Sequence record: MK295204
DNA length: 64,000 nucleotides
Source of the DNA: Shigella phage vB_SdyM_006
Direction: 5' to 3' (one strand)
The notes beneath the pieces were generated by a model. That model was not told where the DNA came from and did not search any database. It worked only from the letters and a program-made list of their open reading frames with translations. The position numbers and the translations under genes were made by a program. Below, piece by piece: positions 1,363 through 18,370 of the stretch. How positions within the stretch are numbered: position 1 is the first letter of the stretch; each line of letters begins with the position of its first letter.

Positions 1363-2613
1363 ATGACCAATAAGATTCAAAAATTATTGCGCGAATCAAG
1401 TACAACAGCCAGTTCATCTAATGGACGTCCTGATCTTGTTGGGTTAACACGCGCAACACATGATTTAATTTTTACAGATTTAATTGCAATACAGAATACA
1501 AATCAGCCAGAAGCGACTCTTTATGGTGTCAAATATTTAAATGACAATAAAGATATGAGTTTTATGACACCAGCTACATATTCTGGTGCTATAAAATCAA
1601 GAGAAAATATCGAAGAACTTGACCCATCTAAATCATATTCTAAAGATGATATGTTTAAATTTGAAGAAGTGGTTTATAAAGTCGTTAAAGATAATCCATT
1701 TACAGATTTGACGTCATTACCAAAAAATGAAGCTTTAGGCCAAGCAATTATAGATGGTTCTATTAGATTTATGTCTGAAGCGGCATTAACTGGGCATTTT
1801 GAAAAGAAAGACGTAGAAATAGCAGAAGCTTCTGTCAGATTAGATCGTTGGAATATTCCTGTAAGAACAAGAAAAATTAAAACAGAGCTCACAGTTGAAT
1901 TTGCTCAAGACTTAAATTCAAACCAGTTTGAAGCAGGTGCCGTAATTGATGACATGTTAGCTACTATTTTAGCTGAAGATGTTAATAAAGACGTTATCCA
2001 AAAAATTATGACTGTTTCTAGTCGATATAAGGTTAAAGGAATTTCTGATAAAGGAATGTTAGATTTAACCAAAACGGATGTTGCTCCTGAACAAGGACGT
2101 ACTTTATATCGTTATATTTGTGAAATGAATGCGTCTATCGAAAGAAATACAACTTATGATGGGACATATGTTTTAGCTAGTTCAAGATGTGCTGCTATTT
2201 TGTCTGCATCAGGTTGGATGGATATTAATCCTGATTATCCTTTAGCCGCTGGCACACTTAAAAATGGCTTACCTGTTTATTCTGACCCTTGGTCTCCTGT
2301 TGACTATGTAGTTGTAGGAACTAAACAAAACCTTGGTGAGCTAGAACATGTAGGTTCTTTATTCTATGCACCTTATATTGATTTTGATGGCGCAGGTGCT
2401 TATAAATTAGTTGTCGATCCAGATAGTTTACAACCTAAACTTGCTTTAATGGTCCGATATGGGTTATCAATTAATCCATATACAGTCATTGAAGTAGACG
2501 AAACACCTCAAAAAGAATCTATGTTAGTTCAAGGTGATGATTGGGACAATTTAGTTGGTAAGTCTAAAATGTCATATATTTTAGGTGTTCAATTACCTAA
2601 ACTTATAGAATAA
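1363..2613 (+). CDS. 24: head vertex protein gp24
   Basis: 416 aa paralog of gp23 directly downstream, as in T4; RBS GAGAG before ATG. Confidence 0.85.
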   Translation: MTNKIQKLLRESSTTASSSNGRPDLVGLTRATHDLIFTDLIAIQNTNQPEATLYGVKYLNDNKDMSFMTPATYSGAIKSRENIEELDPSKSYSKDDMFKFEEVVYKVVKDNPFTDLTSLPKNEALGQAIIDGSIRFMSEAALTGHFEKKDVEIAEASVRLDRWNIPVRTRKIKTELTVEFAQDLNSNQFEAGAVIDDMLATILAEDVNKDVIQKIMTVSSRYKVKGISDKGMLDLTKTDVAPEQGRTLYRYICEMNASIERNTTYDGTYVLASSRCAAILSASGWMDINPDYPLAAGTLKNGLPVYSDPWSPVDYVVVGTKQNLGELEHVGSLFYAPYIDFDGAGAYKLVVDPDSLQPKLALMVRYGLSINPYTVIEVDETPQKESMLVQGDDWDNLVGKSKMSYILGVQLPKLIE

Positions 2614-2641
2614 TTTATTTAATTTCCGGTAATTTATTACC

Positions 2642-2669
2642 TTTTTTGGGAACTTCGGTTCCCTTTTTA
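2642..2669. terminator. bidirectional intrinsic terminator between convergent genes
   Basis: TTTTTT, stem GGGAAC, loop TTCG, stem GTTCCC, TTTTT; between gp24 (+) and 2670..3233 (-). Confidence 0.65.
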
Positions 2670-3233
2670 TTAGAAAAAATCATCTAATGTAAACTCTTTA
2701 TATCCTATCATTTCTTTGAATTCGCACATCACTATTGGGTTATATAAATTATAAGTCTTTATCCCTAAATAACGTGCTAGATAAACAGCTGTTCTTGTCC
2801 CTCCAGAAACATTCCCATATTTATCCTCAGGTGCCCAAAATATAACTGAATCAACAGGATTTTCTAAAGTAGGTGTTAATATTTGCATACAATTTCTACA
2901 TTGAAGATGTTTAACAGTTTTAGAAACACTGTCTAATTTAGGATAAAATCTTCTTATAATATTAGCGGCTTTTTCTTGGATTTCGTCATTAAAGTCTGTA
3001 AATATATGAACACCATTCCCAGAATAGTGATTATTGAACCCCTGGTGAGGAATAATAACACATTTATTTTCAGATGAGTATTTCTTCATAAACAAATAAT
3101 CACTCCCAGGCGCTCCTCCTGATGTTCCTAGCACTCCTAAATTAGAAATATATTCTCCACCACTTATTAAAATATTAGATAAACGACTTGGTATTTTTCT
3201 TGACCCTATTAAAGCTACAGAATTTTTAACCAT
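2670..3233 (-). CDS. DprA/Smf-like SLOG (Rossmann-fold) protein
   Basis: Motifs IGSR, TSGGAPGSD and SGGTRTA resemble DprA/LOG-type nucleotide-binding fold; ATG with GAGGT RBS; a terminator hairpin sits immediately upstream. Confidence 0.5.
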   Translation of the reverse strand: MVKNSVALIGSRKIPSRLSNILISGGEYISNLGVLGTSGGAPGSDYLFMKKYSSENKCVIIPHQGFNNHYSGNGVHIFTDFNDEIQEKAANIIRRFYPKLDSVSKTVKHLQCRNCMQILTPTLENPVDSVIFWAPEDKYGNVSGGTRTAVYLARYLGIKTYNLYNPIVMCEFKEMIGYKEFTLDDFF

Positions 3234-3241
3234 GCTAACCT

Positions 3242-3262
3242 CAAAAAGGACCCGAAGGTCCT
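3242..3262 (-). terminator. intrinsic terminator directly upstream of the SLOG-like gene
   Basis: On minus strand: stem GGACC, loop TTCG, stem GGTCC, then TTTTT, then RBS and ATG at 3233. Confidence 0.55.
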
Positions 3263-3267
3263 TTAAT

Positions 3268-3423
3268 TTATTGTAAAGCTAAAATTAAACCCACAATAAT
3301 AAACCATAACACAAACCCAATCCATAATGGTGATAACACCCATAGCCAAGACCAAGCAATGACACCAACTAGTTTTAAAACAATAAACACAATACCTAGT
3401 ACACCCAAAAATCCAATTTTCAT
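3268..3423 (-). CDS. small hydrophobic membrane protein (51 aa), not in ORF track
   Basis: ATG 1 nt after stop of upstream gene; translation MKIGFLGVLGIVFIVLKLVGVIAWSWLWVLSPLWIGFVLWFIIVGLILALQ is almost entirely hydrophobic (about two TM helices). Confidence 0.35.
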   Translation of the reverse strand: MKIGFLGVLGIVFIVLKLVGVIAWSWLWVLSPLWIGFVLWFIIVGLILALQ

Positions 3424-3424
3424 A

Positions 3425-3670
3425 TTACCAACCTGTTATTTGTATTATATTAGAATCAAATTGGGTTCTTTTAACAGTTAACCCTTCGTTTTGTAATTTT
3501 GTAATAACTTTCTCTTGGACTCGGTATGAGATTTCACCTAGAGTCCAAGTTAAACTATCATACCCATGTTTAGATTTAAGCATTAATCGCTTTGCAATAT
3601 CATTAAACACCTGTTTAGATTCAAGCTCAACTAAGCTATCTTTAGAATCTTTTAATTTATCAATAAACAT
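3425..3670 (-). CDS. hypothetical protein (81 aa)
   Basis: ORF in leftward operon downstream of rnlB. Confidence 0.5.
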   Translation of the reverse strand: MFIDKLKDSKDSLVELESKQVFNDIAKRLMLKSKHGYDSLTWTLGEISYRVQEKVITKLQNEGLTVKRTQFDSNIIQITGW

Positions 3671-3677
3671 AATAAAC

Positions 3678-4682
3678 CTATTTTGTAATTAAATTGACCC
3701 AATCTTTTCGAATGAATTCTTGTATTTCTTTTTGAATAGATTTCTTGATTAATGCTGGGTCATCGTAATCAAGAATATCATGCCCGTCTTTTAACATATC
3801 TTTTAAAACATCCTGCATCATTAGACCTTGAACTTTGCCAAAATCTTTTGAAGATATTTCGCCAACATGGCTAATCACATTAGATAAACGTTGTGCAGTG
3901 ATATATGATGTAGAAAAATTAACCAGTTCTTGGTCGTCATTTGATAATTCTGGTGTAGGTCTAATTGTTTTTACTTTACCAGTTTCTTTGAACTTAGCAT
4001 TTTTACATTTAAAAATTACACGGCTTTTATTATTGAACTGTGTTGGAGTAATAGGTTTAAGAACATAACCTTCTGCAATATTTTCTGAACCTTCTTTTTG
4101 AGGACCAAATACGTGGGCATTTGCAGCCGGAATACCATGTTCTTTTACTATTGCATTAAATTCTGGGATTAAAGAATCAAATGAACGCTCTAAATTACTT
4201 AATTCATCAAAGTCACCAGTTAAAATAACAGGGCAGATTTTAAGATTTGTTTTAGAAGATAACATTCTTAAAAATAAAGCATCTACTAAATCACCATTAA
4301 TTAAAATATCAAATACCCAGAAATCTTTTTCTTCGTAATCTACTTCTCGTTGAATACCAGGGCCTGCATATTCGCCAAAGACTGTTAAAAGTTCTAAGTC
4401 AGGCATTGATTCTTTAACAGTATTAAACATGTCAAGAATGTTTTGTTTATAACGCTTTAAGATTAATTCGTATCCAAAAAATGCTTCAGATTCACCAATA
4501 AGATTAGTTCGTTTTGCACAAACAACATCTACACCATCACAAATAAAACTAAAATTAGTCCCATGTATTTTTTCTTGGGCAATCCAAGGAATACCTGGTG
4601 CTGTTTTTCCTTCAAAAAAGGCCTTTTCTACTAATTTAGTGTTATCAATATTTTCAATAGAATCATATTTAATAAATTGCAT
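3678..4682 (-). CDS. rnlB: RNA ligase 2
   Basis: 334 aa, same length as T4 Rnl2; nucleotidyltransferase motif EKIHGTN and co-linear similarity to T4 Rnl2. Confidence 0.9.
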   Translation of the reverse strand: MQFIKYDSIENIDNTKLVEKAFFEGKTAPGIPWIAQEKIHGTNFSFICDGVDVVCAKRTNLIGESEAFFGYELILKRYKQNILDMFNTVKESMPDLELLTVFGEYAGPGIQREVDYEEKDFWVFDILINGDLVDALFLRMLSSKTNLKICPVILTGDFDELSNLERSFDSLIPEFNAIVKEHGIPAANAHVFGPQKEGSENIAEGYVLKPITPTQFNNKSRVIFKCKNAKFKETGKVKTIRPTPELSNDDQELVNFSTSYITAQRLSNVISHVGEISSKDFGKVQGLMMQDVLKDMLKDGHDILDYDDPALIKKSIQKEIQEFIRKDWVNLITK

Positions 4683-5018
4683 TTATACCTCAAACAATCG
4701 TATTTTAAGACTAGTTGTATATTTGATTTCTAAATTATAAACTTTACCACTATAAACAACAAGAATTTTATTTGGGTTTTCTTCACACCACATTATATTA
4801 TCGTCATTAATAATGTTTAAAAATTCTAGCTCTGAATAACAAGCCCACGAGAATGATTTACTTAAAAACTCTTTTAAATCAAGCCAATCGGTTTCGTCAC
4901 AAATAGCAGGACTCATAACAGCAAGTTTGTGGGTATATGTTTCTTTATCACACCAACGAGTAAAAAACACTTCACGTTTTTCTTCTAAAGGAATAACACC
5001 AGCAGTATACCAAGACAT
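4683..5018 (-). CDS. hypothetical protein (111 aa)
   Basis: ORF; C-terminus resembles that of the next ORF. Confidence 0.5.
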   Translation of the reverse strand: MSWYTAGVIPLEEKREVFFTRWCDKETYTHKLAVMSPAICDETDWLDLKEFLSKSFSWACYSELEFLNIINDDNIMWCEENPNKILVVYSGKVYNLEIKYTTSLKIRLFEV

Positions 5019-5027
5019 AATAATTCC

Positions 5028-5312
5028 TTATTTGATTGGGATGATTCTAAATTTGTATTCACCGCCACGAGTAAATTTAACTTCTAACTGAGTTGATTCA
5101 CCAATGTAAAGAACCAAAATTGAATTTTTATTAGAACGTAACCAGTCTTGATATTCTTCAAAAGACTTGCGTAAAGATGGGATGCTATTTTTATATCGGC
5201 CTAAAATAGTCCATGAGAATTCACCACTGCCCATCCATTTAGTGGAACGGTCATATTTTAAAAGGTTTTCAATATCAATATTTAACCATGTTTTAAAGTT
5301 TTCTTTAATCAT
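5028..5312 (-). CDS. hypothetical protein (94 aa)
   Basis: ORF; C-terminal pattern ILVLYIGE..LEVKF resembles ILVVYSGK..LEIKY of 4683..5018. Confidence 0.5.
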   Translation of the reverse strand: MIKENFKTWLNIDIENLLKYDRSTKWMGSGEFSWTILGRYKNSIPSLRKSFEEYQDWLRSNKNSILVLYIGESTQLEVKFTRGGEYKFRIIPIK

Positions 5313-5500
5313 TTTCTTACCTTCATTCGTTTACGATAAACTACTTTTTCGCGAGTTTTAAATTCCTTCTGTTTTTGTTCAACTTCAATATAAACAGAAG
5401 CCATTTCTTTAGCTGTTCCACCCATTTTTCTGGCTATATCAACAAAGTGCATACCTTGTTGTTTAAGAAAGTGGATTTTTATTTTATCATGATTTGTCAT
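5309..5500 (-). CDS. small basic protein, possible helix-turn-helix
   Basis: Track ORF starts at TTG (5512); first ATG at 5500; Lys/Arg-rich C-terminus. Confidence 0.4.
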   Translation of the reverse strand: MTNHDKIKIHFLKQQGMHFVDIARKMGGTAKEMASVYIEVEQKQKEFKTREKVVYRKRMKVRK

Positions 5501-5660
5501 TATTTTCTTCAAAATCTTTACAGATATCCAAGAGTTTTTTGTTTAAAGCTTCAACAAATTCTGTAGCTGAATCAGGGTATTCGTTAAATAAATAACACAA
5601 ATACTCACTATGTATTTCATGGGCCACTTGAGAAACCATAGTCTTAAGTTCTTTATTCAT
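5487..5660 (-). CDS. hypothetical protein (57 aa from ATG with GAGG RBS)
   Basis: Track ORF extends to 5693 overlapping the macro gene; internal ATG at 5660 has RBS and removes the overlap. Confidence 0.4.
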   Translation of the reverse strand: MNKELKTMVSQVAHEIHSEYLCYLFNEYPDSATEFVEALNKKLLDICKDFEENNDKS

Positions 5661-5664
5661 ATAA

Positions 5665-6099
5665 TCACCTCTCAATAATGTGTATTCTATCATCTAAAAT
5701 ATCATTAAGCATAGGACCAATGACATCCCAATTTAAGCCACCATTAGAACACCCTGGTTTAGGCAGGAGAACTCTTTTAAAATTGTTATTAGATACTATC
5801 TCCATTAATTCTAATGCACTCTTACGTATCAGGTCTTTATCAGACTTGTTATACCAATCATGTTTAGTAGGAAATGATATTAAATTAATGTTATTATATT
5901 TCGTAAGAATTCTGCATACATGGCCGTATTGGATTAAGGATTTAGCCATGATTAAGTCTAAATTAGGAACCTTCAACGAAAAGAGACGGGCAATTCCGGC
6001 TCCCATAACAGCTCTTTTATTTTTCTTGATATTCATGTTTGTTGTAATGCAAATAGCATCACAAGGGATATCAAGAATATTTCCAGATACTATTTTCAT
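5665..6099 (-). CDS. macro-domain protein (ADP-ribose binding/hydrolase fold)
   Basis: 144 aa; N-terminal SGNILDIPCDAICITTN, glycine loop VMGAGIA, C-terminal PKPGCSNGG fit minimal macro domain. Confidence 0.75.
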   Translation of the reverse strand: MKIVSGNILDIPCDAICITTNMNIKKNKRAVMGAGIARLFSLKVPNLDLIMAKSLIQYGHVCRILTKYNNINLISFPTKHDWYNKSDKDLIRKSALELMEIVSNNNFKRVLLPKPGCSNGGLNWDVIGPMLNDILDDRIHIIER

Positions 6100-6518
6100 A
6101 AAGCTTCTTTTAAAACTTCTATAGCATGCTTAATTTCAAAAGGGATACCTTCTGATGGATGCTGGCGAATGTTATCGTCAATATGACTAAAATCCATGCC
6201 AATTACACGGACTTTATATTTTTGCTCACTATCAAATTCTGATATATTAGAACCCCAAGTGTTTGATGATGTAACTTCTTTAGTCTCAAAATAAGTACAT
6301 CCACAATGACAATATTCGTGCCAAAAATCACAGTCTTTATCAAATAAAGGGTGGTCTTCGCGAAGAGTTAAATATACCGCATAACTCCAATCCGGACGAC
6401 CATCATTAAATAAAGCTTTATAACTAGGTGGTAATCCTGTAAACCATGAAGTAACTTCAATAGCTTCGCCTTTCTTTTTATCTGCATGAACAGTGTATAC
6501 ATATTTTTGAATAGACAT
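6096..6518 (-). CDS. Cys/His-rich protein coupled to macro-domain gene
   Basis: Stop overlaps macro start (ATGA); contains CDFWHEYCHCGC cluster; no family recognised. Confidence 0.55.
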   Translation of the reverse strand: MSIQKYVYTVHADKKKGEAIEVTSWFTGLPPSYKALFNDGRPDWSYAVYLTLREDHPLFDKDCDFWHEYCHCGCTYFETKEVTSSNTWGSNISEFDSEQKYKVRVIGMDFSHIDDNIRQHPSEGIPFEIKHAIEVLKEAL

Positions 6519-6716
6519 TTATTTTACCTCAATAATAGTGAGTTCAGTATCTTCTGTCAAATCACAAAAGTCAAAAGCCAATGCAGCAATACCTGGGTAT
6601 TCTGATTCGTCAATAATACATTCAGTATTATTATTTTTGATGTCTAAGGCTAATTGATAATTAGACGTAGTAAATCCAAGTTCAAGTTCTTCGCACCATA
6701 CGGTATACTTTTTCAT
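6519..6716 (-). CDS. small protein, tandem paralog A (65 aa)
   Basis: Begins MKKYTVWCEE, ends TIIEVK; paralog of adjacent gene. Confidence 0.55.
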   Translation of the reverse strand: MKKYTVWCEELELGFTTSNYQLALDIKNNNTECIIDESEYPGIAALAFDFCDLTEDTELTIIEVK

Positions 6717-6911
6717 TTATTTTACCTCAATGAGTTCACAATCGTATAAACAACTACACAGTTCACAAAAAGAATAAGCCGATGCATATGAATCAGTGTC
6801 TATCCAAAACCCAAGATTATCAATAGCACCTTTACGAACTTCATAAGCAAGTTGATAATCAACTGTTTCAAATCCAATTTTCTTTTCTTCGCACCATACT
6901 ATATATTTCAT
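6717..6911 (-). CDS. small protein, tandem paralog B (64 aa)
   Basis: Begins MKYIVWCEE, ends ELIEVK; abuts paralog A. Confidence 0.55.
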   Translation of the reverse strand: MKYIVWCEEKKIGFETVDYQLAYEVRKGAIDNLGFWIDTDSYASAYSFCELCSCLYDCELIEVK

Positions 6912-7756
6912 GAGTATTCCTTGTCATAATAAGAATCTGGAGTAAAAATATTTAACATATTTGTAGAATTATCAATAGTAATAATATTTTCCTGTTCAAC
7001 TTCAGGTGTATAATATTTTAAAAACTCTTCTTTAACGTATTTTACTGGATCACTTTTATAATCGTCAGTAGAAATATCAAATAATTCAATTGTATACGTA
7101 TCAAGCCATTTTTCAGAACATGTTAATCGTCCACATAATAATCCATCATAAACGATAGCATATTCAATATGGCCCCATTTATATGAGCTATCAGCGTCGT
7201 GTCTGATTAGATAAAACTTAATATCAGAATTCTCACAATCATCACTAATATTGTCACGAACATCGTATTCATTGAGCTCGGTCAATTCACTTAAAGCATT
7301 AATAAACAGGTTTTTATATTGAGGGCCAGTTACTAACTTATCTTCTGTTAGTTCTTTCTCAATAAATTCTTTTAAAGTTAAAACTGGCAATTCATACTTA
7401 GGAAATAATGCAGTTTCAGTAATAGTGCCGATATTCAATTCGGCCAATTTCTTAATAACAGAATCTTCAGCTTTATCAGAATCAGTCCAAATATGAAGAA
7501 CTTTAAAATTATGATTATTCCAAATTTTTTGTGGGTCAACATCAATCACATCTTGGGTTTTAGACAAAAACATTAAAAGGTAATCAGAATCATTCCACCC
7601 TACTGGGTTTTCGTATTTTTGAATGACTAGATATTGGAAATCAGTCATTAATGCATTATATCTTTCTTTAGAAGCTAAAGAAGTAGAATCCATAGATGAA
7701 GAAAAAGCTTCAATAACACTAGCTGGGTTTTTAATTAACATTTTGAATAGTCCCAT
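6908..7756 (-). CDS. hypothetical protein (282 aa)
   Basis: ORF with ATG; ATGA overlap with downstream gene. Confidence 0.55.
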   Translation of the reverse strand: MGLFKMLIKNPASVIEAFSSSMDSTSLASKERYNALMTDFQYLVIQKYENPVGWNDSDYLLMFLSKTQDVIDVDPQKIWNNHNFKVLHIWTDSDKAEDSVIKKLAELNIGTITETALFPKYELPVLTLKEFIEKELTEDKLVTGPQYKNLFINALSELTELNEYDVRDNISDDCENSDIKFYLIRHDADSSYKWGHIEYAIVYDGLLCGRLTCSEKWLDTYTIELFDISTDDYKSDPVKYVKEEFLKYYTPEVEQENIITIDNSTNMLNIFTPDSYYDKEYS

Positions 7757-7977
7757 GTGATTTTAACACGATCATGATATATTACTCTATCATGGCTTTT
7801 TGAAACTGTAAATCCTTTTTCTTTAAGAATTTCAATCAACGCATCTTTAATGGCTTCATTTTCTGGAAGCTTTGCGTAATGCTCTGTACTATCATGCAAA
7901 GCCAGTTGGCAAATATCATTTAACACAATAGCTAAATTGTGTTCAACAACAGTATTTTTAAGATCAGATAAATTCAT
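7735..7977 (-). CDS. hypothetical protein (80 aa), first gene of leftward accessory operon
   Basis: ORF with ATG; candidate GTTTAC promoter upstream. Confidence 0.5.
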   Translation of the reverse strand: MNLSDLKNTVVEHNLAIVLNDICQLALHDSTEHYAKLPENEAIKDALIEILKEKGFTVSKSHDRVIYHDRVKITWDYSKC

Positions 7978-8010
7978 ATTATTCTCACAGTTGCGAATTG
8001 ATGATGTGTA

Positions 8011-8039
8011 TACTATATTATAAAATAGTGTTTGTAAAC
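8011..8039 (-). promoter_or_regulatory. candidate early promoter for leftward accessory operon
   Basis: Minus strand GTTTAC, 16 nt spacer, TATAGT. Confidence 0.35.
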
Positions 8040-8062
8040 ATCTAAAATAATTTAAAATAAAT

Positions 8063-8091
8063 GTTTACTTTTGCTGTCATTATGATATTAT
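8063..8091 (+). promoter_or_regulatory. T4-type early promoter, copy 1 of repeated promoter/5'UTR cassette
   Basis: GTTTAC (8063-8068), 17 nt, TATTAT (8086-8091); followed by conserved leader ending GGAGTATATTATG. Confidence 0.6.
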
Positions 8092-8133
8092 ATACATATT
8101 GAAACGAAACATGAAAAACAAATGGAGTATATT

Positions 8134-8478
8134 ATGAATAAGACACAAATCAATGCAGTTTTAAAAACTTTAGGTTATGGTAATTTACGTTATTCTAATG
8201 GTAAAACATACCGCAGAGGAAACTCTATGGTTAAAGGTTTTCATTTAATTTCTACTGGTGCATGTATGGTGACTTCACCAGAAACACAAAAATTTAGTGA
8301 TCTTGTTAATGAGTTAAAACAACATTTTGAATTACAATCATATTATGACAATTGCATGGCAATATTTGTGACAGGAAAATTAAAAATTGTTGTTTGTTTA
8401 ACAAATTTTAATACATACGGTGGCTTAAACCCAGATTATAAAACATGGTTTGCATCTGTTAATATTGAAAAGTTATAA
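8134..8478 (+). CDS. hypothetical protein (114 aa), rightward moron-like gene
   Basis: ATG at 8134 preceded by GGAG; opposite orientation to neighbours; own promoter and terminator. Confidence 0.55.
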   Translation: MNKTQINAVLKTLGYGNLRYSNGKTYRRGNSMVKGFHLISTGACMVTSPETQKFSDLVNELKQHFELQSYYDNCMAIFVTGKLKIVVCLTNFNTYGGLNPDYKTWFASVNIEKL

Positions 8479-8481
8479 AAC

Positions 8482-8509
8482 AAAAATGGGACCGTAAGGT
8501 CCCATTTTC
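8482..8509. terminator. bidirectional intrinsic terminator
   Basis: AAAAA, stem ATGGGACC, loop GTAA, stem GGTCCCAT, TTTT; between 8134..8478 (+) and gp54 (-). Confidence 0.6.
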
Positions 8510-9422
8510 AAATTAATCTTGTTACAGCTCCTATTCCTCCTCCAGCACCACCTAATCTTGTTAAATTTCTTAATGAAGAGCTTAAAGAGTTTTCTTCTGA
8601 AATTGTATCTATGGCACCAATTGCTTTTGATTCTAACCAATCAAGAGCTGCTTGCCTACCGACAGAACCTACCTGCATCACCCTGTATGCGAATGTAACA
8701 TCAAAAACAGCAATAGTATTATTATCTTCATATGAAAGTTCAGGAGCACCTACCGACATAGGAACACACCCTGTGAACATGGCAACAGTATGTGGAAGAC
8801 CGTTTCTATTGTGTAAATTAACCTGGATATCGGCTTCAACATCTATAGGTAAAGCACGTAGTCCTGTGATTGGGTCTTCAACTGAATTCACCCAATCTTG
8901 CATAGCTCGATAATTACTTGCTTCTGAATCCATCCTAAACGAAATTATCAACGGGTCATATTCTCTAGATAGAACTTTTATATTAGGTGAATTATGATTT
9001 TTATCCATCTCATAAGATAGTCTGTTTTCTGGTAATTTGACAGAATAAACCATTAACCCAGATGTTGGAAATGCCATATTAAAGAAATCTAATAGATAAG
9101 TCCCTACTTCAAATTCTCCTAATAATGATTGAACCACACGATTAGACATGGCTCCTAAAAGATATTTAGAAACACCAGATTTTCTCACTAGTTTTTGAGT
9201 ACCAGCAACAACTAGACTTGATACTGCACTAGTTACATCATTTTGAGATATTCCAAGAAAATCTGTATCTATAGGTAAATTGTTAAACAAAAAACCACCA
9301 AAATTATCTAAAAGCTCATTAGTTTTTGATGATGGGGCTGTGGCAAAAACAACACTAAACATGTTTGTTCTTTGGAAGTCAAGATTGACAGCTTGGCTTT
9401 TAAATTCTTCTAATGTATACAT
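8508..9422 (-). CDS. 54: baseplate tail-tube initiator gp54-like
   Basis: 304 aa; position and size fit T4 gene order 29-48-54. Confidence 0.65.
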   Translation of the reverse strand: MYTLEEFKSQAVNLDFQRTNMFSVVFATAPSSKTNELLDNFGGFLFNNLPIDTDFLGISQNDVTSAVSSLVVAGTQKLVRKSGVSKYLLGAMSNRVVQSLLGEFEVGTYLLDFFNMAFPTSGLMVYSVKLPENRLSYEMDKNHNSPNIKVLSREYDPLIISFRMDSEASNYRAMQDWVNSVEDPITGLRALPIDVEADIQVNLHNRNGLPHTVAMFTGCVPMSVGAPELSYEDNNTIAVFDVTFAYRVMQVGSVGRQAALDWLESKAIGAIDTISEENSLSSSLRNLTRLGGAGGGIGAVTRLI

Positions 9423-10465
9423 TATAACAATCCTTCTGCAAACAAAGTTCCACGATTTAGTGTTAAAATCTCTCTAAACGTTATTTCAAGAGTAAACGTA
9501 CTTGGTAAATTTGGGGCCATGGCTAGACCATTAAAATGTCCATTAGGAGATTTGTCAAATCTTATACTAGAAATCTGGGCTGGTCCAAATATATCAGTTC
9601 GGCCATCATAAGAAGATGTTTTACCAAAATTTCGTATAACCCATATTGTTGGGTTACTTACAACAAGAACATTAGTTAAAAAACTTGTAATATTTTCCAA
9701 TATTGTTCCTGAAGTATCAGCACCGTCTGGGGTATTAGGATTTATTAATGTTGTTTTATACCATTCATCAATAGCGGCTTTAATTTCTTTAGCAAATTTA
9801 GACACACCTGTTTCACCATAAGAGAAATAACTAAATATTTCGTAAATATACAAAATTTGTATAAGGTCTTGTGGAGTCCTTGGTGTTAAATGCCAGGTAA
9901 AAACTTTAGTTCTATTATCCGCTCCAGCATACATAGATCTAGCTGTAGTATAAATTTGTTCGCCTTTATCAGCCATAATTCCTTGTGTAATCGAATCTAA
10001 TGCACCAAAAACAGCCGTTGACGCAACATTACTCAAAGCACCTGTTACGCTACCACCACCTTTAGTTAATAAAGAATCTCCAACATCATTAAATCTATGA
10101 GAAATGTTATCTACGTCAGATTGACTTCTTGGCATTAATATATTAGCAACAGATTCTTGACTAAAGGTGGTTGTCCCACCTTTTTTAGAAAAATCAATAT
10201 TAATTGCGTCAACGGCATTTTGTTTTTTTCTAAAGTCTCTTAATGAGCCTGTATCGCGTGCATTATAATTATATGCAGTAAATAACAGCCCGTTTTTATA
10301 TAAGTCATTAAGTCTAAAATCTAAAGCATTATCTGTACCAGAGGCTCGTTCTGCTGGAAACTGAGCCACTAATGTTTTGGTTTGAGTATTTGTTGGATTA
10401 GAAGACCCAGCAGATATTTTTGTTCCTATTTTCTCTACTTCTTCATCCAGAACTTTTATTTTCAT
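9422..10465 (-). CDS. 48: baseplate tail-tube cap gp48-like
   Basis: 347 aa; synteny between gp29 and gp54. Confidence 0.65.
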   Translation of the reverse strand: MKIKVLDEEVEKIGTKISAGSSNPTNTQTKTLVAQFPAERASGTDNALDFRLNDLYKNGLLFTAYNYNARDTGSLRDFRKKQNAVDAINIDFSKKGGTTTFSQESVANILMPRSQSDVDNISHRFNDVGDSLLTKGGGSVTGALSNVASTAVFGALDSITQGIMADKGEQIYTTARSMYAGADNRTKVFTWHLTPRTPQDLIQILYIYEIFSYFSYGETGVSKFAKEIKAAIDEWYKTTLINPNTPDGADTSGTILENITSFLTNVLVVSNPTIWVIRNFGKTSSYDGRTDIFGPAQISSIRFDKSPNGHFNGLAMAPNLPSTFTLEITFREILTLNRGTLFAEGLL

Positions 10466-12186
10466 TAATTAACCTCTAAAGCTTTATACATGCCAGGAGC
10501 AGCATATCCTGTTACAGGATTTTGTTGAATAACAGTCTTATTATTAGCTACATTGTTTTGGACATTAGCTGTATTTGTGGTCGTTTGAGATGATGTTTCT
10601 GTTGTTTCTATATTATTGATATTTTCTGCACTTGTGTAAGCTTGAGATTCTTTAGGATCTTCAGGTTTAATAGATGGGATCTGCTCTAATAACAAATCTG
10701 ATCTATCTAATGCATCTATTCCTAATTTATAATAATCCGAATCGACTTCAACATCTTGGTTATCAACAATAGAACTTGCAAGTTCTCTTAATTCGCCAGC
10801 TATTTTAGTTAAAGCCTCTGGGTTATTTCTATGAGCTTCAGATAAGGCCATTAATTGATTTAATCTAGCTTCAGTTTTTACTTGTTCTTCTATATCGCCC
10901 ATTTCTGGTGCAGATTCATCTTGCTTTTTAGCTAAAGCAATAGCCCTATCAGCATCTTCTCTACTTATAACATTATTTTTTACATAAGTGTTTGCAGCTT
11001 CTTCTATAGACCCACCTGTAAATCTTGCTCTAGCTTTTATCATTGATAAATAGCCTTCATCATCACTTTTGGCGGTATTTCTAATGTCGTTACCACGAAC
11101 TTTAGCCATTAACTTAAGTTCATCTTCGTTAGGCATATAACCTGTATTTTTATTATATGCTTCTATAGTTGCAACTTCTAATTCGTCAGCCCAGTCGTCC
11201 TGCCCTATAGCTCGTAATAATGAAGATAACATTTTTCCTAATGCGTACTGTAAGCCTTGTAAAAGATTTTCTAAAACGTTTACCATACCTTTTACAATGG
11301 CTAATGCTAAATTACCAAAATCGCCTTCTTTCCAGAATTTTTTGACATCTTCTAGTGTAGCAAATATAGAACGCAATATCGGGGCTAGTGGTCCAAGTTT
11401 TTCTTCAAAATCGTCAAAGGCTTCATTAAATAATTTACCCCAATATTTAAAATGAATCATTATAAGGTCCATAGCTAATACTATAGCCAACATTATTGCT
11501 GCCCATTTGGCAGCAAACAACGCCGCTGTTACAGTGTATTTAAACAACATATCAGCTATTCTGTTTGTCATCCCATAAGCAGATTTGAACCCAGTTTTAA
11601 CATTTTTATTTAAAGAATTTAAAACTTTAGATAAAGAGTCTTTTTCTTTATTGTCATCTTTAGGTTCTTTCTTTTTCTTCTCTTCTTCTGGGACCGGTGC
11701 TCTATCGACGTCATCTCTTCTAATAACAAGGTCTTTAATAGCAGATTCTAGTTTATTATCTTCAACCGGAACAGGGAGTTTAGAAAAAGCTTCTTCGGTC
11801 TCAGAAACTTCTGGTTCTACAATTTCCTGTTTTTCTGGTTTAAATTTTTCTTTTAACATATTACTTAATTTAGATATGTTCGAAGAAAAAGAATTTGATA
11901 ATTTAGAATTACTTGTTGCTAAGTCTTTTAAGTTATTATTTGTTTCTTGACTAGAATCTATTAATAACTCAACACCAGCTTGAACATCTTCTACAGAAGA
12001 AACAACTTTAGAAGTCCCAGATTCTACGGTTTCTGCAACTAGCTCAATACCATTTGATAAGTCATCTAAAGAATCAGAAACATTAAGCATAGAGTTAGCA
12101 ACATTTTCTTGGCCTTTAGATTCTTTAGATATTTTATTTTTTTCTTCTATTACTTTATTTCTTCTAAACGAATCAGGTGTTTTCAT
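10465..12186 (-). CDS. 29: baseplate hub / tail length determinator gp29-like
   Basis: 573 aa (T4 gp29 about 590 aa); synteny. Confidence 0.65.
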   Translation of the reverse strand: MKTPDSFRRNKVIEEKNKISKESKGQENVANSMLNVSDSLDDLSNGIELVAETVESGTSKVVSSVEDVQAGVELLIDSSQETNNNLKDLATSNSKLSNSFSSNISKLSNMLKEKFKPEKQEIVEPEVSETEEAFSKLPVPVEDNKLESAIKDLVIRRDDVDRAPVPEEEKKKKEPKDDNKEKDSLSKVLNSLNKNVKTGFKSAYGMTNRIADMLFKYTVTAALFAAKWAAIMLAIVLAMDLIMIHFKYWGKLFNEAFDDFEEKLGPLAPILRSIFATLEDVKKFWKEGDFGNLALAIVKGMVNVLENLLQGLQYALGKMLSSLLRAIGQDDWADELEVATIEAYNKNTGYMPNEDELKLMAKVRGNDIRNTAKSDDEGYLSMIKARARFTGGSIEEAANTYVKNNVISREDADRAIALAKKQDESAPEMGDIEEQVKTEARLNQLMALSEAHRNNPEALTKIAGELRELASSIVDNQDVEVDSDYYKLGIDALDRSDLLLEQIPSIKPEDPKESQAYTSAENINNIETTETSSQTTTNTANVQNNVANNKTVIQQNPVTGYAAPGMYKALEVN

Positions 12187-12691
12187 TTTGGAATAATCCT
12201 AATATGTCGTCGCCATAAACAACTTTGTCTTCAAGGTTTATAGCAATACTTTTTCCAAGTTCATCAGCCCATTTATACACAAAAGCTGGCATACTACCAA
12301 AATCAACTTTTTCTAAACATAATGTTTCTAAAAGTTCTTTAGCTGAAGTGAATCTTTCTCCTGGTAATATGTCTCTAAATTTATATTCTTTTCCTTGATA
12401 AGTAAATTTAGGTGTTGGTAATAGATAAACATCATTTATTGAGTAAGTTTTATCTTTATATACGAATGTGTCTGTACATTTACCATTAAATTCGGCTAAA
12501 TGAAGCAAGACTAAATGAGCTTCTTTAAATGACAAATTTTTATCTACAGAATCAAGAACTATTTTTAAAGTATCTTCTGGAGATTTAGCTTCTTTGAATT
12601 TGTCATAATAATTAAGTCCGAGTTTAGGAATTGTTAATTCTTTTCCATTTATATTAATCTTCTTCAGTGGAAGAATTATCTTTAATTTCAT
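12173..12691 (-). CDS. 28: baseplate hub distal subunit gp28-like
   Basis: 172 aa; synteny. Confidence 0.6.
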   Translation of the reverse strand: MKLKIILPLKKININGKELTIPKLGLNYYDKFKEAKSPEDTLKIVLDSVDKNLSFKEAHLVLLHLAEFNGKCTDTFVYKDKTYSINDVYLLPTPKFTYQGKEYKFRDILPGERFTSAKELLETLCLEKVDFGSMPAFVYKWADELGKSIAINLEDKVVYGDDILGLFQNENT

Positions 12692-13799
12692 TTTTTACCT
12701 TAATATGATCTACTGGTTTAAGAATTTTACTATTACTGAACATGTAAATATGTGTAAAACTCTGATTATTAGACATTTCATGTATAACAGAATCTACATA
12801 AAAAGTACTTAAGAACTGATTCTTAGGGTCATAGAATTCTAATTTATTTCCAGGCGTTATATCAAAATCCCCATAAGTTGTACATTTTGCATAGGAATCA
12901 TATTGAGCCATTGTATTTAATTTAGTCGCTTCTTCATACCCATTTCTAAATAACTGATCTGAATACCCGCCATTTCTCGAAACTAAAATAGAATTTTCGC
13001 CATTTCCATTCACTATCCTAGTACAAGTTTTATCAATCATACTAAAAGAATATATAGTCGAGTTTTCGTATGGGTTTCTATTATGAGAATTTGTTTTTGT
13101 TATCCATTCAAAATCATATGCAAGTGGATATTCAAGTTGATCTGCAAATTGTCCAACCATTAACGGTTCTCCGACTACCATTTCCTTAACTTTTGAATTA
13201 ATGATTTGTTGGAAATCTGTGACGTGGATCCCATTAAAATCATCCCAAACCAAAGCAAACATATCAGATGCAACAGAAATACCAGTATCTCTAACATAGT
13301 CCATATATTCCTTAATTCCAAGAACCCATGGAACTAAAGGAACGTGAATATTCGTGCCAGTGATCGTAGGTTTCAATAAAGGGGTGTCGGTATATAAAAC
13401 ATTTATCATTTCTTCTATAGTCTCTGTGGCGTTCTTGAAGAACACTCGACTAAATTTAAGATTTTTATTTTTATACGGTGGAATCAATTGCATTGTAATA
13501 ATGTTATCGCCTTTTTGATCAACTGATACAGAAGAATATTTTACGGCATAAATTCTATTTTTAGTTATTGATGTATTTGCATTACCTACAGAAATTTGGA
13601 TTATTTGGTCTCCATCTAATTTAGTATGCATATTTTTATGATCGTAAATTTGTAACATCCCTTCGTTGGTCCCGTATAAATCATCTCTAATTGTCAACGA
13701 AGTAAAAGTTCCTGCTAATTCTATAAATCGGTTTTCTAACCAAGCATCATAACTTTGGTATAATTTTATCGATATATTAGGATAACCCACCTTTTGCAT
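12654..13799 (-). CDS. 27: baseplate hub subunit gp27-like
   Basis: 381 aa (T4 gp27 391 aa); synteny. Confidence 0.65.
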   Translation of the reverse strand: MQKVGYPNISIKLYQSYDAWLENRFIELAGTFTSLTIRDDLYGTNEGMLQIYDHKNMHTKLDGDQIIQISVGNANTSITKNRIYAVKYSSVSVDQKGDNIITMQLIPPYKNKNLKFSRVFFKNATETIEEMINVLYTDTPLLKPTITGTNIHVPLVPWVLGIKEYMDYVRDTGISVASDMFALVWDDFNGIHVTDFQQIINSKVKEMVVGEPLMVGQFADQLEYPLAYDFEWITKTNSHNRNPYENSTIYSFSMIDKTCTRIVNGNGENSILVSRNGGYSDQLFRNGYEEATKLNTMAQYDSYAKCTTYGDFDITPGNKLEFYDPKNQFLSTFYVDSVIHEMSNNQSFTHIYMFSNSKILKPVDHIKVKNEIKDNSSTEED

Positions 13800-14550
13800 G
13801 TTTTTTGTCCTTTAAATCTTTTTCTATTAATGCTAATGTGATTGTCCTGTTCATTGGGGTCATTTTCTCTATATCGTTTAGAGAATAGCCTTGTTTAACC
13901 ATGATATGATTAATTTTATAAAATGCTATAATTTCCTCTTCAGACAAAATTATTTTAAACAGGTCTAAAATGTTTCTATATACCATTTCGTGAGTATCAC
14001 AACAACTAAATTTAACAGGGATATAAATTGGATATATCTCTTTTATTATTTGTTCAAAATCATCTAGAGAAATAACAGACATAACAAGATTTTTATTCTC
14101 TTGGTCTAAATCTTCCCATATATAAGAACCATTATTGTCTTCAATTTTATATATACAGCTGTCAAATAATTTTTTTATATCAGTTGTCATTATATCTGTA
14201 AAATCAAAATGAATTTTTATTCCTGAAGTTTCTAGAACAGGTCTTTTAAGTCTTTTCAATTCTAAGTTTAAAAAGGTCTTCTTTTCTTTACCACATTTAG
14301 GGCATTTAAAACGTATAGGAAGAACAGATTTACCAATAGATGAAGTAAACCAAATTATAAATGCATAAGCTCTATATATTTTTGGCATATAAGGAAATGA
14401 CTCTTCTAATAATTCATCTAGTATTTGTTCTGCTTCTTCTTGATTTTTTTCTATTTCACTCCGTACAAATAATAATTGTAAATAATCATCATTAGTAAAC
14501 TGACGAATTCTGTATGTTTTTTCTGGTGTGACTATTCTTATTATGTTCAT
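13777..14550 (-). CDS. 51: baseplate hub assembly catalyst gp51-like
   Basis: 257 aa; first gene of leftward late operon; TATAAATA upstream. Confidence 0.6.
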   Translation of the reverse strand: MNIIRIVTPEKTYRIRQFTNDDYLQLLFVRSEIEKNQEEAEQILDELLEESFPYMPKIYRAYAFIIWFTSSIGKSVLPIRFKCPKCGKEKKTFLNLELKRLKRPVLETSGIKIHFDFTDIMTTDIKKLFDSCIYKIEDNNGSYIWEDLDQENKNLVMSVISLDDFEQIIKEIYPIYIPVKFSCCDTHEMVYRNILDLFKIILSEEEIIAFYKINHIMVKQGYSLNDIEKMTPMNRTITLALIEKDLKDKKHAKGGLS

Positions 14551-14566
14551 AGTGTCTCCTCTTATT

Positions 14567-14574
14567 TATTTATA
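14567..14574 (-). promoter_or_regulatory. late promoter TATAAATA for gp51 operon
   Basis: Exact TATAAATA on minus strand, 17 nt from gp51 ATG. Confidence 0.6.
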
Positions 14575-14578
14575 AATA
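14571..14578 (+). promoter_or_regulatory. late promoter TATAAATA for gp26-gp25
   Basis: Exact TATAAATA on plus strand, 18 nt before gp26 ATG; overlaps minus-strand copy. Confidence 0.6.
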
Positions 14579-14595
14579 GATAAAAAGGAGACACT

Positions 14596-15180
14596 ATGTT
14601 TGAAATAACATGTAACGACATAACATACAACGCTAGATATTTCACTCTAGACGAATACGAGGACGTTCTTAATAAAATAACTGATAATAATATTAAAGAC
14701 GCCATTAGTGGGCTCTTAATTGATTGTATAGACTCCTACGATACAAACTTGCCTAAACACTATGCAGAATGTATTTTTCTTAAATTATGGGCTCACAGTT
14801 TAGGTGGAGTAACTAAAGAACTAAATGATATTTTTGTTAATTTTAATTATATAGAAACACCTAAAGAAAAAGGATTTATTTACAAATTAGATGGATTGAG
14901 TCTCAAAATGAGATATCCAAAATTATTTGAAGACTCTGATAAATTAGAAATGGTCATAAATTGTATTGACTCAGTATTATTAGAAGACCAAACAGAAATT
15001 AAAGCTTCAGAGCTTTCTTCAGATGATTTAAACGTTTTATATTCATACTTGACGAAAGACGTAATTTTTTCGTTAAGAGACGAATTACTTAGACCTAAAC
15101 CGTATATCGCTTTTCCTGTTGATGACGAAATTAAAACAATAGAAGGGTTTAAAAATTTATTAGAGGTGATAGATGAGTAA
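14596..15180 (+). CDS. 26: baseplate hub subunit gp26-like
   Basis: 194 aa; AGGAG RBS; directly upstream of gp25. Confidence 0.65.
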   Translation: MFEITCNDITYNARYFTLDEYEDVLNKITDNNIKDAISGLLIDCIDSYDTNLPKHYAECIFLKLWAHSLGGVTKELNDIFVNFNYIETPKEKGFIYKLDGLSLKMRYPKLFEDSDKLEMVINCIDSVLLEDQTEIKASELSSDDLNVLYSYLTKDVIFSLRDELLRPKPYIAFPVDDEIKTIEGFKNLLEVIDE

Positions 15181-15559
15181 AATGAATGTTTTATATTCTG
15201 ACTTAGACCCTAAAATGGAAAAAGGCTGGGATAAAGACCTGCATAAAGTCGTAGGAGATAGGGCTGTCAAAAATTCTATTCTAGGAATAATTAGTACTAG
15301 GAAAGGGTCTAGACCCTTTGACCCAGAATTTGGGTGTAATATAACAGACCAATTATTCGAAAATATGAGTCCATTAATAGAAGACACTATAGAGCGATCT
15401 ATAGTTTCGGCTATTAAAAATTATGAGCCAAGAGTACAAAGATTAAAAGTTTCTGTTACTGCATTGTATGATTCAAATTCTATAGTTGTAGATATTATTT
15501 TTTCTATTGTAGATAATCCAGACACATTAGAACAGATAAAAGTTCAATTATCAAAATAG
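15173..15559 (+). CDS. 25: baseplate wedge protein gp25
   Basis: 128 aa; motif TRKGSRPFDPEFGC and overall co-linearity with T4 gp25. Confidence 0.9.
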   Translation: MSKMNVLYSDLDPKMEKGWDKDLHKVVGDRAVKNSILGIISTRKGSRPFDPEFGCNITDQLFENMSPLIEDTIERSIVSAIKNYEPRVQRLKVSVTALYDSNSIVVDIIFSIVDNPDTLEQIKVQLSK

Positions 15560-15760
15560 TTTACTATAGTTATTAATTTATTACTTAATAGTTATATATA
15601 ATATATAAAGAACTTAATAAAATAATAAAAATTCTGGAGCTGCGCTCCAGATTTCTTTAGAAATAGTAACATATAGTTATTAATTTATTACTTAATAGTT
15701 ATATAGAATATACTATACTTTTAATAAATTAATTTACTAGAGTTACTATTAATAGGCTAT
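15560..15760. repeat. AT-rich intergenic repeat region, copy 1
   Basis: Two copies of ATAGTTATTAATTTATTACTTAATAGTTATATA (from 15566 and 15673); about 85 bp near-identical to 52358..52441. Confidence 0.8.
15634..15650 (+). terminator. hairpin inside repeat region
   Basis: Stem CTGGAGC, loop TGC, stem GCTCCAG, then ATTTCTTT. Confidence 0.5.
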
Positions 15761-15798
15761 TATAATAAAATGGTTATAATGAATCATTTGGAGGAACT

Positions 15799-16209
15799 AT
15801 GAATTTAGAAGAATTACAAACAATGTTATCAGAAGATTTAAGAATTGATCCATTAAAACTTCAATATGAAGCTGCAAATAATCCAACATTATATGGAAAA
15901 TGGTTAAAAATTTATTCTGATATAAAGAAAGGAATTATTTCTTATGAAGCTAATAAGAAAAAACTTTTAAAACAAAGATTAGACCATTATACTGGACGTG
16001 GTGATGAAGTGTGTATGGACTTATATGAAAAATCAGAACTTAAAACTGTTATTGCAGCTGACCCAGAAATTTTGAAAACACAAACATCTGTGGAATATAG
16101 AACATTATTATTGGATTTTGCATCAAAAGCTTTAGATGCTATTAAAGCCCGTGGATTTAGTATTAAGCACATTCTAGAATGTAGACAATTTGAGGCAGGA
16201 ACAAAATGA
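15799..16209 (+). CDS. uvsY: recombination mediator UvsY
   Basis: 136 aa; KLQYEAANN and LLDFxSxALDAIKxRGFxIKHI match T4 UvsY. Confidence 0.9.
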   Translation: MNLEELQTMLSEDLRIDPLKLQYEAANNPTLYGKWLKIYSDIKKGIISYEANKKKLLKQRLDHYTGRGDEVCMDLYEKSELKTVIAADPEILKTQTSVEYRTLLLDFASKALDAIKARGFSIKHILECRQFEAGTK

Positions 16210-16577
16210 CAAGCATTGATGTATTGAATCAACAGATTGATTTAGCTTCTTCAATTGAAGGAATTACTGACAAAACTCCTGTAATAAAATCAATGAAACA
16301 CTATTTAAGAGATATAAATAATATTAAGCCAATGGCTGAAGGTATACTTAAAAGTAATAAATTACCTGATTATACATTATCTCAAATCATTGAAGAACTA
16401 AAAGGATGGGCTATGGACCATATTTGTGTAGTTTGTAAAAAGCCTATTGATGAGAGTTTAGTTATCTATAACGATAATAATGAACCTGTTCATCCGGGGC
16501 CTTGTTATAATTTTGCTAAAGAACAACCTGTAACAGAATCAGGTCATTCTTTAAATGAAGTAGAATTATTAATGTAA
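16206..16577 (+). CDS. hypothetical Cys-rich protein downstream of uvsY
   Basis: 123 aa; CVVCKK...HPGPCY suggests zinc ribbon. Confidence 0.5.
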   Translation: MTSIDVLNQQIDLASSIEGITDKTPVIKSMKHYLRDINNIKPMAEGILKSNKLPDYTLSQIIEELKGWAMDHICVVCKKPIDESLVIYNDNNEPVHPGPCYNFAKEQPVTESGHSLNEVELLM

Positions 16578-16583
16578 AAAATA

Positions 16584-16609
16584 AAAGACGAGGGTTACTC
16601 GTCTTTTTC
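16584..16609. terminator. bidirectional terminator
   Basis: Stem AAAGACGAG, loop GGTTAC, stem CTCGTCTTT, flanked by A- and T-runs. Confidence 0.55.
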
Positions 16610-16816
16610 TGTTTCTAAATCTTCTAATTCTAATCTCTTGCCTTCTAAGGCATCTCTTATAGAGATATCATCAGTATCTTTAATTTCTAATTCTTTTATA
16701 CGTTTAGAATAATATTTTTCTAATTCGTCTAAACCAGCCAATGTTTGACATTCTCTTATTTTGTTCATAAAAGTTTCGACACTAGCTTCGATTAAAATAT
16801 CTTTAAATTTTAACAT
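16595..16816 (-). CDS. UvsW.1-like small protein
   Basis: 73 aa directly downstream of uvsW. Confidence 0.5.
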   Translation of the reverse strand: MLKFKDILIEASVETFMNKIRECQTLAGLDELEKYYSKRIKELEIKDTDDISIRDALEGKRLELEDLETEKDE

Positions 16817-18315: not shown

Positions 18316-18329
18316 TACTTTCACCTTGT

Positions 18330-18337: not shown

Positions 18338-18343
18338 CATATA

Positions 18344-18351: not shown

Positions 18352-18370
18352 CAAAGCCTAAGAGGACATT

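Follow-up and report, generated by a model that had tools for sequence, protein, structure and literature searches.

Between rnlB, which codes for RNA ligase 2, and the baseplate gene 54 of Shigella phage vB_SdyM_006 lies a block of small genes, which we analyzed within a 64,000-nucleotide stretch of the genome (record MK295204; the window hereafter means this whole stretch). Nucleotide comparison places the window in the T4-like genus Bragavirus: its segment 3000-10500 shows 97.4% DNA identity to Proteus phage phiP4-3 (Straboviridae, genus Bragavirus) and about 82% to Pm5461, PM2 and SJ_PmiM, and these five genomes make up the Bragavirus set compared below. Ten leftward open reading frames (ORFs) fill 4683-7977 with almost no intergenic space and are followed by one gene on the opposite strand, moron114; together these are the eleven island genes (Table 1). 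We consider it probable that the block is a hyperplastic early operon with an ancestral core and a macrodomain gene, macro144, directed against DarT2, accompanied by a separate cassette on the + strand.

The product of macro144 is macrodomain over its entire 144 amino acids (aa). It reaches only a threshold-level score for the Pfam Macro model and is recovered by DarG profiles, namely NCBIfam antitoxin_DarG with 6e-18 over model positions 2-138 of 338 (next model 1e-4) and PADLOC DarG with 1.5e-18. In the PDB it matches structures of DarG macrodomains best, those of T. aquaticus and M. tuberculosis (5M31, 5M3I), ahead of human TARG1 (9e-7 versus 0.06). To PhiKZ gp104 (AdfM) it shows 29% identity (E 2e-16), and in the alignment its N21 falls on the catalytic N23 of AdfM; K79, the equivalent of TARG1 K84, lies in an FPTK motif that DarG shares, and the glycine-rich phosphate loop GCSNGGL, of the GxxNGGL type, is conserved relative to T. 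aquaticus DarG. When translated, the 144-aa frame is uninterrupted in each of the five Bragavirus genomes. In the records of phiP4-3 (L001 4164-4598) and Pm5461 (L002 4488-4922) only a 141-nucleotide ORF is annotated, with a further, probably spurious opposite-strand gene (gp204) in Pm5461; a pseudogene in these two phages was considered and dismissed as an annotation artifact. The nearest 120 relatives of macro144 among 5.8 billion proteins are all stand-alone, with lengths of 141-181 aa, and a tblastn search places family members in 173 phage records, which span many groups.

The gene is flanked by o140 and o57 with no adjacent DarT, no island ORF matches DarT or the C-terminal part of DarG in PADLOC and NCBIfam, and against the DarG equivalog macro144 scores 65 bits, short of the 250-bit cut-off. 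Thus, it is best described as an orphan antitoxin-like enzyme rather than as part of a toxin-antitoxin system, since a DarTG system pairs a full DarG with DarT and the block offers neither. The likeness to the DarG2 antitoxin of DarTG2 lies in the best hidden Markov model (HMM) and PDB matches, which span the whole macrodomain; the differences are the missing C-terminal DarT-binding domain and the missing DarT neighbor. A second precedent is AdfM of the chimalliviruses, likewise a stand-alone DarG2-like macrodomain of about 150 aa from virulent phages, whose catalytic Asn, FPTK Lys and loop are kept in macro144. It differs in that macro144 belongs to Straboviridae, which have no phage nucleus and hence no import signal, and, unlike AdfM as described, always has a translationally coupled partner, o140, ahead of it. 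AdfM removes DarT2-installed ADP-ribose from DNA and protects chimalliviruses against DarTG2 (PMC13309987, 2026); macrodomains are common in myoviruses (PMC9503650), and DarTG has been reported from genomic islands of Morganella morganii (PMC13227991). Given the homology to DarG and AdfM, the catalytic residues and the stand-alone relatives, macro144 is most likely a DarG2-type orphan, predicted to act as a DNA ADP-ribosyl glycohydrolase against DarT2. A first-pass annotation of this DNA had seen in the block an anti-defense island; that expectation is borne out by the specific homology of this one gene to DarG and AdfM, and the other genes have no such match.

About 20 kb from macro144, the window also encodes a NADAR protein of the gp30.3/AdfN type (26518-26955, - strand; PF08010, 1e-42). 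AdfN (T4 gp30.3), a NADAR of DarG1 type, is an anti-DarT1 orphan antitoxin of T-even phages, and the presence of NADAR and macro144 in one phage fits the layered anti-DarT arsenals that have been described (PMC11825919). Both are phage-borne orphan antitoxin-like glycohydrolases that would erase DNA marks left by DarT; AdfN differs in its fold (NADAR versus macro), in its target base (guanine versus thymine) and in lying outside the region studied here.

The gene coupled to macro144, o140, has a narrow distribution, being confined to 12 phage records and eight protein clusters, and in ten of the ten records with coordinates or annotation that were examined the macro gene lies directly downstream. 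One distant relative (27%) is found on an unrelated phage contig that has no macro gene. Across genera the pair is kept at 46% (o140) and 54% (macro) identity. The o140 family has six invariant residues, E54, H56, H71, C74, H112 and D115, and its structural model is confident (pLDDT, the predicted local distance difference test, of 82); it matched none of the solved folds, and among the viral predictions of BFVD it returned its own family only. The model of o282 is likewise confident and without a matching fold; kinship with the 280-312-aa T4 30.x proteins was discarded at an hhalign probability of 2%. The conserved o282-o64-o140-macro arrangement, with these two confidently modeled but unmatched proteins, is the only element of the block without precedent. 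Conceivably, though in our judgment it is unlikely, the macrodomain acts together with o282, o64/65 and o140 as a conserved multi-protein counter-defense module in which o140 or the small acidic proteins replace the C-terminal domain of DarG, in binding or inhibiting DarT or in bringing the enzyme to replicating DNA, amounting to a split, phage-specific antitoxin with a new partner family.

Table 1. Genes and transcription signals between and around rnlB and gene 54 (window coordinates).
Feature	Coordinates	Strand	Remarks
o81, paralog of o80	3425-3670		phrog_8208
rnlB (RNA ligase 2)	3678-4682	-	phrog_548 3e-109; RNA ligase label in relatives; conserved left anchor, part of the leftward unit
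o111	4683-5018	-	rnlB-side paralog family with o94
o94	5028-5312	-	rnlB-side paralog family with o111
o63 (T4 gp24.3 ortholog, DUF2774)	5309-5500	-	Pfam PF11242 3e-20
o57, small acidic ORF	5487-5660	-	phrog_24549; within recombinant patch
macro144, 144-aa macrodomain	5665-6099	-	DarG-type profile matches
o140, partner of macro gene	6096-6518	-	ATGA overlap with macro144
o65, tandem paralog of o64, PM2/SJ-type copy	6519-6716	-	68-69% to the single copy in PM2 and SJ_PmiM
o64, small acidic, Gualtarvirus-type copy	6717-6911	-	phrog_21221; isoelectric point (pI) 4.3
o282, acidic protein	6908-7756 (or start 7741 = 277 aa)	-	ORF call
o80, first gene of the operon	7735-7977	-	phrog_8208, E 4.5e-25
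Predicted T4-early-type promoter, leftward operon	8010-8046	-	consensus scan: -35 GTTTACA, -10 TAGTAT/TATAAT
Predicted early promoter, opposite-strand cassette	8064-8091	+	A-tract, GTTTACT, N16, TATTAT
moron114, one-gene early cassette	8134-8478	+	phrog_13016; GGAG ribosome-binding site
Bidirectional hairpin terminator	8481-8510	both	common to gene 54 late operon and cassette
Gene 54, baseplate tail-tube initiator	8508-9422	-	phrog_45 1e-64; conserved right anchor; 95-98% identity across Bragavirus

All the features that the first-pass annotation listed are present. The leftward genes are packed as it had described, with three true ATGA start/stop overlaps (o63/o94, o140/macro144, o282/o64) and three TAAATG abutments in the ten-ORF series, and the macro gene indeed lies inside this operon. 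The 282-aa ORF is also there, and shortens to 277 aa with the start chosen in RefSeq, where start choices trim o63 and o57 as well, to the spans given in Table 1. The ratio of nonsynonymous to synonymous substitution rates (dN/dS), computed per ORF against phage PM2, is 0.15 for macro144, 0.18 for o140, 0.30 for both o94 and o63, 0.38 for o80 and 0.44 for the + strand gene, compared with 0.03 for gp54; no value could be had for o111 and o65, whose dS is saturated, or for o64 and o282, of which PM2 has no ortholog. The ratio is below 1 for every ORF where it is computable, and these ORFs are therefore real genes, less tightly constrained than the structural ones. Eight of the eleven island genes lack any named family; beyond the matches given here, searches of Pfam, NCBIfam, PADLOC and the PDB gave nothing usable for the small ORFs or the cassette, and no tRNA or Rfam family was found in window 2000-10000. 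Four proteins, o57, o64, o65 and o282, have a strongly acidic pI of 4.0-4.6, a property common among phage inhibitor proteins, which is only suggestive. Beyond gene 54 follow genes 48 and 29.

The tandem 64/65-aa paralogs of the first-pass annotation hold up, with 43% identity between o65 and o64 (E 7e-11) and a period of 198 bp, and they are joined by two further paralog families that it had missed, o80/o81 and o111/o94. An exact 18-nucleotide repeat, ATTGAGGTAAAATAAATG on the coding strand, stands at window 6516-6533 and 6714-6731, where it runs from the stop codon through the ribosome-binding site to the start codon, once between o64 and o65 and once between o65 and o140; recombination at this repeat might add or remove the small-gene cassette. 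The o80/o81 pair, both members of phrog_8208, brackets the entire block plus rnlB; o80 itself is 46-48% identical to the other Bragavirus copies and weakly matches MP1 gp209. What unites the third family, o111 and o94, is a motif at the C-terminus.

Much of this gene set recurs in a second genus, Gualtarvirus, carried by Morganella phages MP1 and Rgz1 and Providencia phages PSTRCR_121 and PSTRCR_127. Downstream of gp54 these phages present an o80-like gene, o282, o64, o140, macro, 24.3, several genes of the o111/o94 family, rnlB, and o81-like, o51-like and dprA-like genes. The identities are 29-30% for o282 over its full length, 64-66% for o64 (the gene concerned sits directly upstream of o140), 46% for o140, 54% for macro and 62% for 24.3; overall, the order o80, o282, o64/65, o140, macro is repeated at 27-66% protein identity. 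On a metagenomic T4-like contig (L013), gp54 and two small ORFs are followed by relatives of o282 and o140, after which the contig stops. Within Bragavirus the gene order is unchanged. The G+C content across the block is 0.26-0.34, within the 0.25-0.40 of the first 14 kb profiled, and a foreign origin on grounds of composition was accordingly dropped, the block being similar to its surroundings. With the order kept across both genera and the composition unremarkable, the core is ancestral to a T4-like clade infecting Morganellaceae and has suffered later losses, such that o282 and o64, limited to the window/phiP4-3 lineage among the five Bragavirus genomes, are not new acquisitions. These same observations speak against the cargo of the first-pass annotation, if by that a recent acquisition is meant.

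Gene content does differ among the five Bragavirus genomes, through insertions and deletions of one to three genes: apart from o282 and o64, Pm5461 is missing o65 and has two tandem o80-type genes, and SJ_PmiM has one extra ORF (SJ_138) beside rnlB. Relative to phiP4-3 the flanks of the block are 100% identical, whereas 4700-5700 and 6900-7500 fall to 79-98%; in 500-bp bins, five of the eight island bins but only 15 of the 107 elsewhere are below the 97% identity threshold (Fisher test, p = 0.004). The o57 protein is 100% identical to that of SJ_PmiM over residues 1-55 and 86% identical to that of phiP4-3, and its dS against PM2 collapses to 0.04 (o57, o63 and o94 span 0.04-0.34, compared with about 0.7-1.4 for most other genes). 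Together, this match and the dS collapse indicate recent allele exchange at o57, o63 and o94. The description of the region as hypervariable, on the other hand, is too strong: although content varies and divergence from phiP4-3 is concentrated here, island proteins are 46-96% identical to those of PM2 (median about 70%), and other hypothetical early genes in the 64-kb window are 33-100% identical (median about 65%). The hoc/alt/30.x region (19100-26200) diverges more from PM2, with hoc at 44%, alt at 54% and several small ORFs at 33-44%, and one PM2 gene there is without a counterpart.

Other patches of divergence from phiP4-3 occur in the window. Within gene 48, 9600-9800 is 88-90% identical in an otherwise 100% identical baseplate gene, which suggests a small recombination tract. 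The segments 37000-40200 and 54000-54700 are poorly covered or 83-93% identical, and lie around nrdA/nrdB, where phiP4-3 has a homing endonuclease, and in the tail-fiber region.

As to the limits of the block, the first-pass annotation had set the left one at rnlB, which comparison with relatives moves inward, while the right one, at 8478 beside gene 54, is retained. The o63 protein is 56% identical to JS10 gp24.3, and the JS10 order is 24.3, one ORF, rnlB and then a converging gp24. Providencia phage PSTCR6 has the same gp24/dprA-like/rnlB ... gp54 architecture, and its rnlB-gp54 interval holds just two ORFs, an o94-like gene and 24.3, so that gp54 is directly followed by 24.3 (54% identical to o63). 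The o111/o94 family thus adjoins rnlB even in this phage; it has one copy in PSTCR6, two in Bragavirus and four domains in three genes in Morganella phage MP1 (L008 7123-8373, where gp218 holds two copies). Since PSTCR6 and JS10 keep 24.3 and, in the former, the o94-like gene by rnlB, the first 0.8 kb at the left, 4683-5500 with o111, o94 and o63, is part of a conserved rnlB-24.3 cluster, the insert proper extends over about 5487-8478, and PSTCR6 serves as its empty-site reference. The likeness to the 24.3-24.2-rnlB early cluster of T4 is that o63, the gp24.3 ortholog, stands upstream of a co-oriented rnlB, and the difference is that the position of 24.2 is taken by the unrelated, expanding o111/o94 family.

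Most T4-like genomes lack the block, so that the refuting condition set by the first-pass annotation, identical gene order in most of them, does not hold. In Tevenvirinae, gene 54 is adjoined by alt (alt/ligase) and 24.3 by hoc. The map of phiP4-3 reads ligase, alt, one ORF, hoc, inh, uvsW, uvsY, 25, 26, 51, 27, 28, 29, 48, 54 and then the block. When this is set against the T4 gene order, which the phiR1-RT and Metamorpho maps support, the hoc-to-54 segment (window about 8500-20300) is inverted in this clade, with the block at one inversion junction, specific to the lineage; the inversion puts alt beside hoc and gene 54 beside the 24.3-rnlB cluster.

The 144-nucleotide gap between o80 and the cassette (7978-8121) holds predicted back-to-back promoters of T4-early type. 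In all five Bragavirus genomes both GTTTAC -35 elements and the TATTAT -10 element of the + strand are kept, in the midst of intergenic sequence and flanking proteins that diverge, and the -35/-10 elements of the cassette promoter are conserved although the protein that they drive is only 46% identical. The hairpin between the cassette and gene 54 is stable on both strands (free energy -17.3 kcal/mol on + and -17.8 on -; z -5.8 and -5.3), and its better U-run is on the - strand, i.e. that of gene 54; therefore, it is shared rather than private to the cassette. Another hairpin, at 3245-3264 between o51 and the dprA-like gene (GC-rich with a - strand U-run; -11.5 kcal/mol, z -2.6), may partly terminate the leftward operon ahead of dprA.

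The cassette gene, moron114, is present in all Bragavirus genomes, with 46-47% identity between the phiP4-3 and PM2 types despite neighbors at 95-98%, and absent from Gualtarvirus and PSTCR6. Homologs of about 30% identity occur in Ackermannviridae; that of Klebsiella phage Menlow comes right after the capsid gene, as the sole gene between a pair of annotated terminators. Pfam and PDB searches with moron114 gave no match, and its derivation from the small T4 ORF beside gene 54 was rejected for want of similarity to phiR1-RT g199 or Metamorpho_075. The patchy distribution and the terminator-bounded homologs support moron114 as a transferable one-gene cassette with predicted transcription of its own. 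The first-pass annotation had called it a moron with its own promoter and terminator; a predicted promoter and a ribosome-binding site are in place, the terminator is held in common with gene 54, and, because a classical moron is expressed from a prophage to the benefit of the lysogen and the carrier here is a virulent T4-like phage, the term applies by analogy only.

Taken as a whole, the block is a real recombination-prone accessory region, typical of the T4 hyperplastic regions (Comeau, Arbiol and Krisch; PMC4122927, PMC2839356) and not exceptional among them. Like those, it consists of small, mostly unassigned early genes between core modules, here rnlB/gp24 and gp54/48/29, other T4-like lineages lack it or have something else in its place, and its content varies by indels and replacements among relatives (o282 and o64, o65, the extra o80, SJ_138, and the patches relative to phiP4-3). 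It differs in being one tightly coupled operon and in having an 18-nucleotide junction repeat flank a duplicated gene in place of PeSL elements.

Under the account that we favor, in which the expression timing, the enzymatic substrate and the roles of o140 and the other small genes are what we infer, the operon would be read leftward from the sigma-70/T4-early-type promoter through ten genes into rnlB. Its core (o282, o64/65, o140, macro) would go back to an ancestor that Bragavirus and Gualtarvirus have in common and would have been remodeled since, as genes were lost or tandemly duplicated and co-infecting relatives exchanged alleles. Made early, macro144 would hydrolytically remove the ADP-ribose that host DarT2 toxins attach to thymidines of single-stranded phage DNA and so keep phage replication going, as has been shown for PhiKZ AdfM. 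Translationally coupled to it, o140 could be a metal-binding accessory or a second counter-defense protein; the acidic o57, o64, o65 and o282 might be inhibitor-type host-takeover or anti-defense factors; and moron114 would be a separately transcribed cassette, exchanged horizontally with Ackermannviridae.

Several points weigh against this account. Macrodomains act on various substrates, including ADP-ribose on Glu/Asp of proteins, ADP-ribose on RNA, ADP-ribose-1''-phosphate (Appr-1''-p) and O-acetyl-ADP-ribose, and the identity between macro144 and AdfM is no higher than 29%. DarG HMMs register no resemblance of o140 to the DarT-binding domain of DarG, and what connects o140 with macro144 is their adjacency. 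The early timing is read from promoter consensus only. No PeSL elements (stem-loop plus early promoter) were found inside the block, whose sole promoter region (the gap after 7977) and sole hairpin (that at the gene 54 border) are separated by the cassette, so that the classical shuffling mechanism is not evident. Furthermore, the substrate of a macrodomain is not fixed by its sequence (PMC9503650), and the DarTG report cited above concerns Morganella morganii and not the Proteus hosts.

The substrate question underlies two rival explanations. One is that macro144 reverses ADP-ribosylation of proteins or RNA, laid down by another host defense ADP-ribosyltransferase or by the phage's own Alt, whereby it would tune host takeover. 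An Alt is indeed encoded at window 20291-22324 (local tblastn and phiP4-3 annotation), and the nearest eukaryotic relatives, the TARG1-like macrodomains to which macro144 has weak matches, act on proteins and nucleic-acid ends; combined with a substrate range that sequence does not predict, this gives the idea some footing. We nevertheless hold it to be improbable, as macro144 resembles DarG and AdfM far more than TARG1 (see the PDB values above) and the loop is of the DarG type, not the GCGLD of TARG1. In the case of Alt, enzymes of this type modify arginine, and we know of no macrodomain that cleaves the arginine linkage. Distinctly unlikely, in our view, is an RNA-repair operon, in which macro144 would be a Poa1p-type ADP-ribose-1''-phosphate phosphatase clearing the by-products of 2'-phosphotransferase-dependent RNA ligation in concert with rnlB. 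Its place about 1 kb upstream of rnlB within a shared leftward unit, the "phosphatase" label on relatives in PHROGs and RefSeq, and the discussed links between macrodomains and viral RNA repair (PMC9503650) have to be set against DarG profiles (1e-18) that are far ahead of the generic macro/ADP-ribose-binding ones (1e-4). The two genes also part company on both sides: PSTCR6 and JS10 have rnlB without macro, N4-like, phiKZ-like and other phages have macro without rnlB, and the partner that macro144 keeps is o140. The established T4 map likewise has rnlB without a macro gene, and no Tpt1/KptA is annotated in the inspected 50 kb of phiP4-3.

A further possibility is that the block is no functional unit at all, being instead a neutral dumping ground of decaying, vertically inherited, lineage-specific early ORFs with macro144 as a passenger. 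Divergence no greater than that of other hypothetical early genes, the shortage of named families and the dispensability of several genes in sister phages would all sit well with it. What makes it rather unlikely is the purifying selection on every ORF with a computable dN/dS, the survival of the o282-o64-o140-macro order through 30-66% protein divergence across genera, and the translational coupling and conserved promoters, which point to co-expression.

If macro144 works as predicted, macrodomain anti-DarT factors would extend from the nucleus-forming jumbo phages to T4-like phages, and one phage would carry both orphan antitoxin types, NADAR against DarT1 and the macrodomain against DarT2. 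The co-inherited o140 would offer a lead on accessory factors, such as has been postulated for T4 AdfN. Otherwise, the region is useful as a well-bounded example of a hyperplastic region with an empty-site reference, in phages of Proteus, Morganella and Providencia that are candidates for phage therapy.

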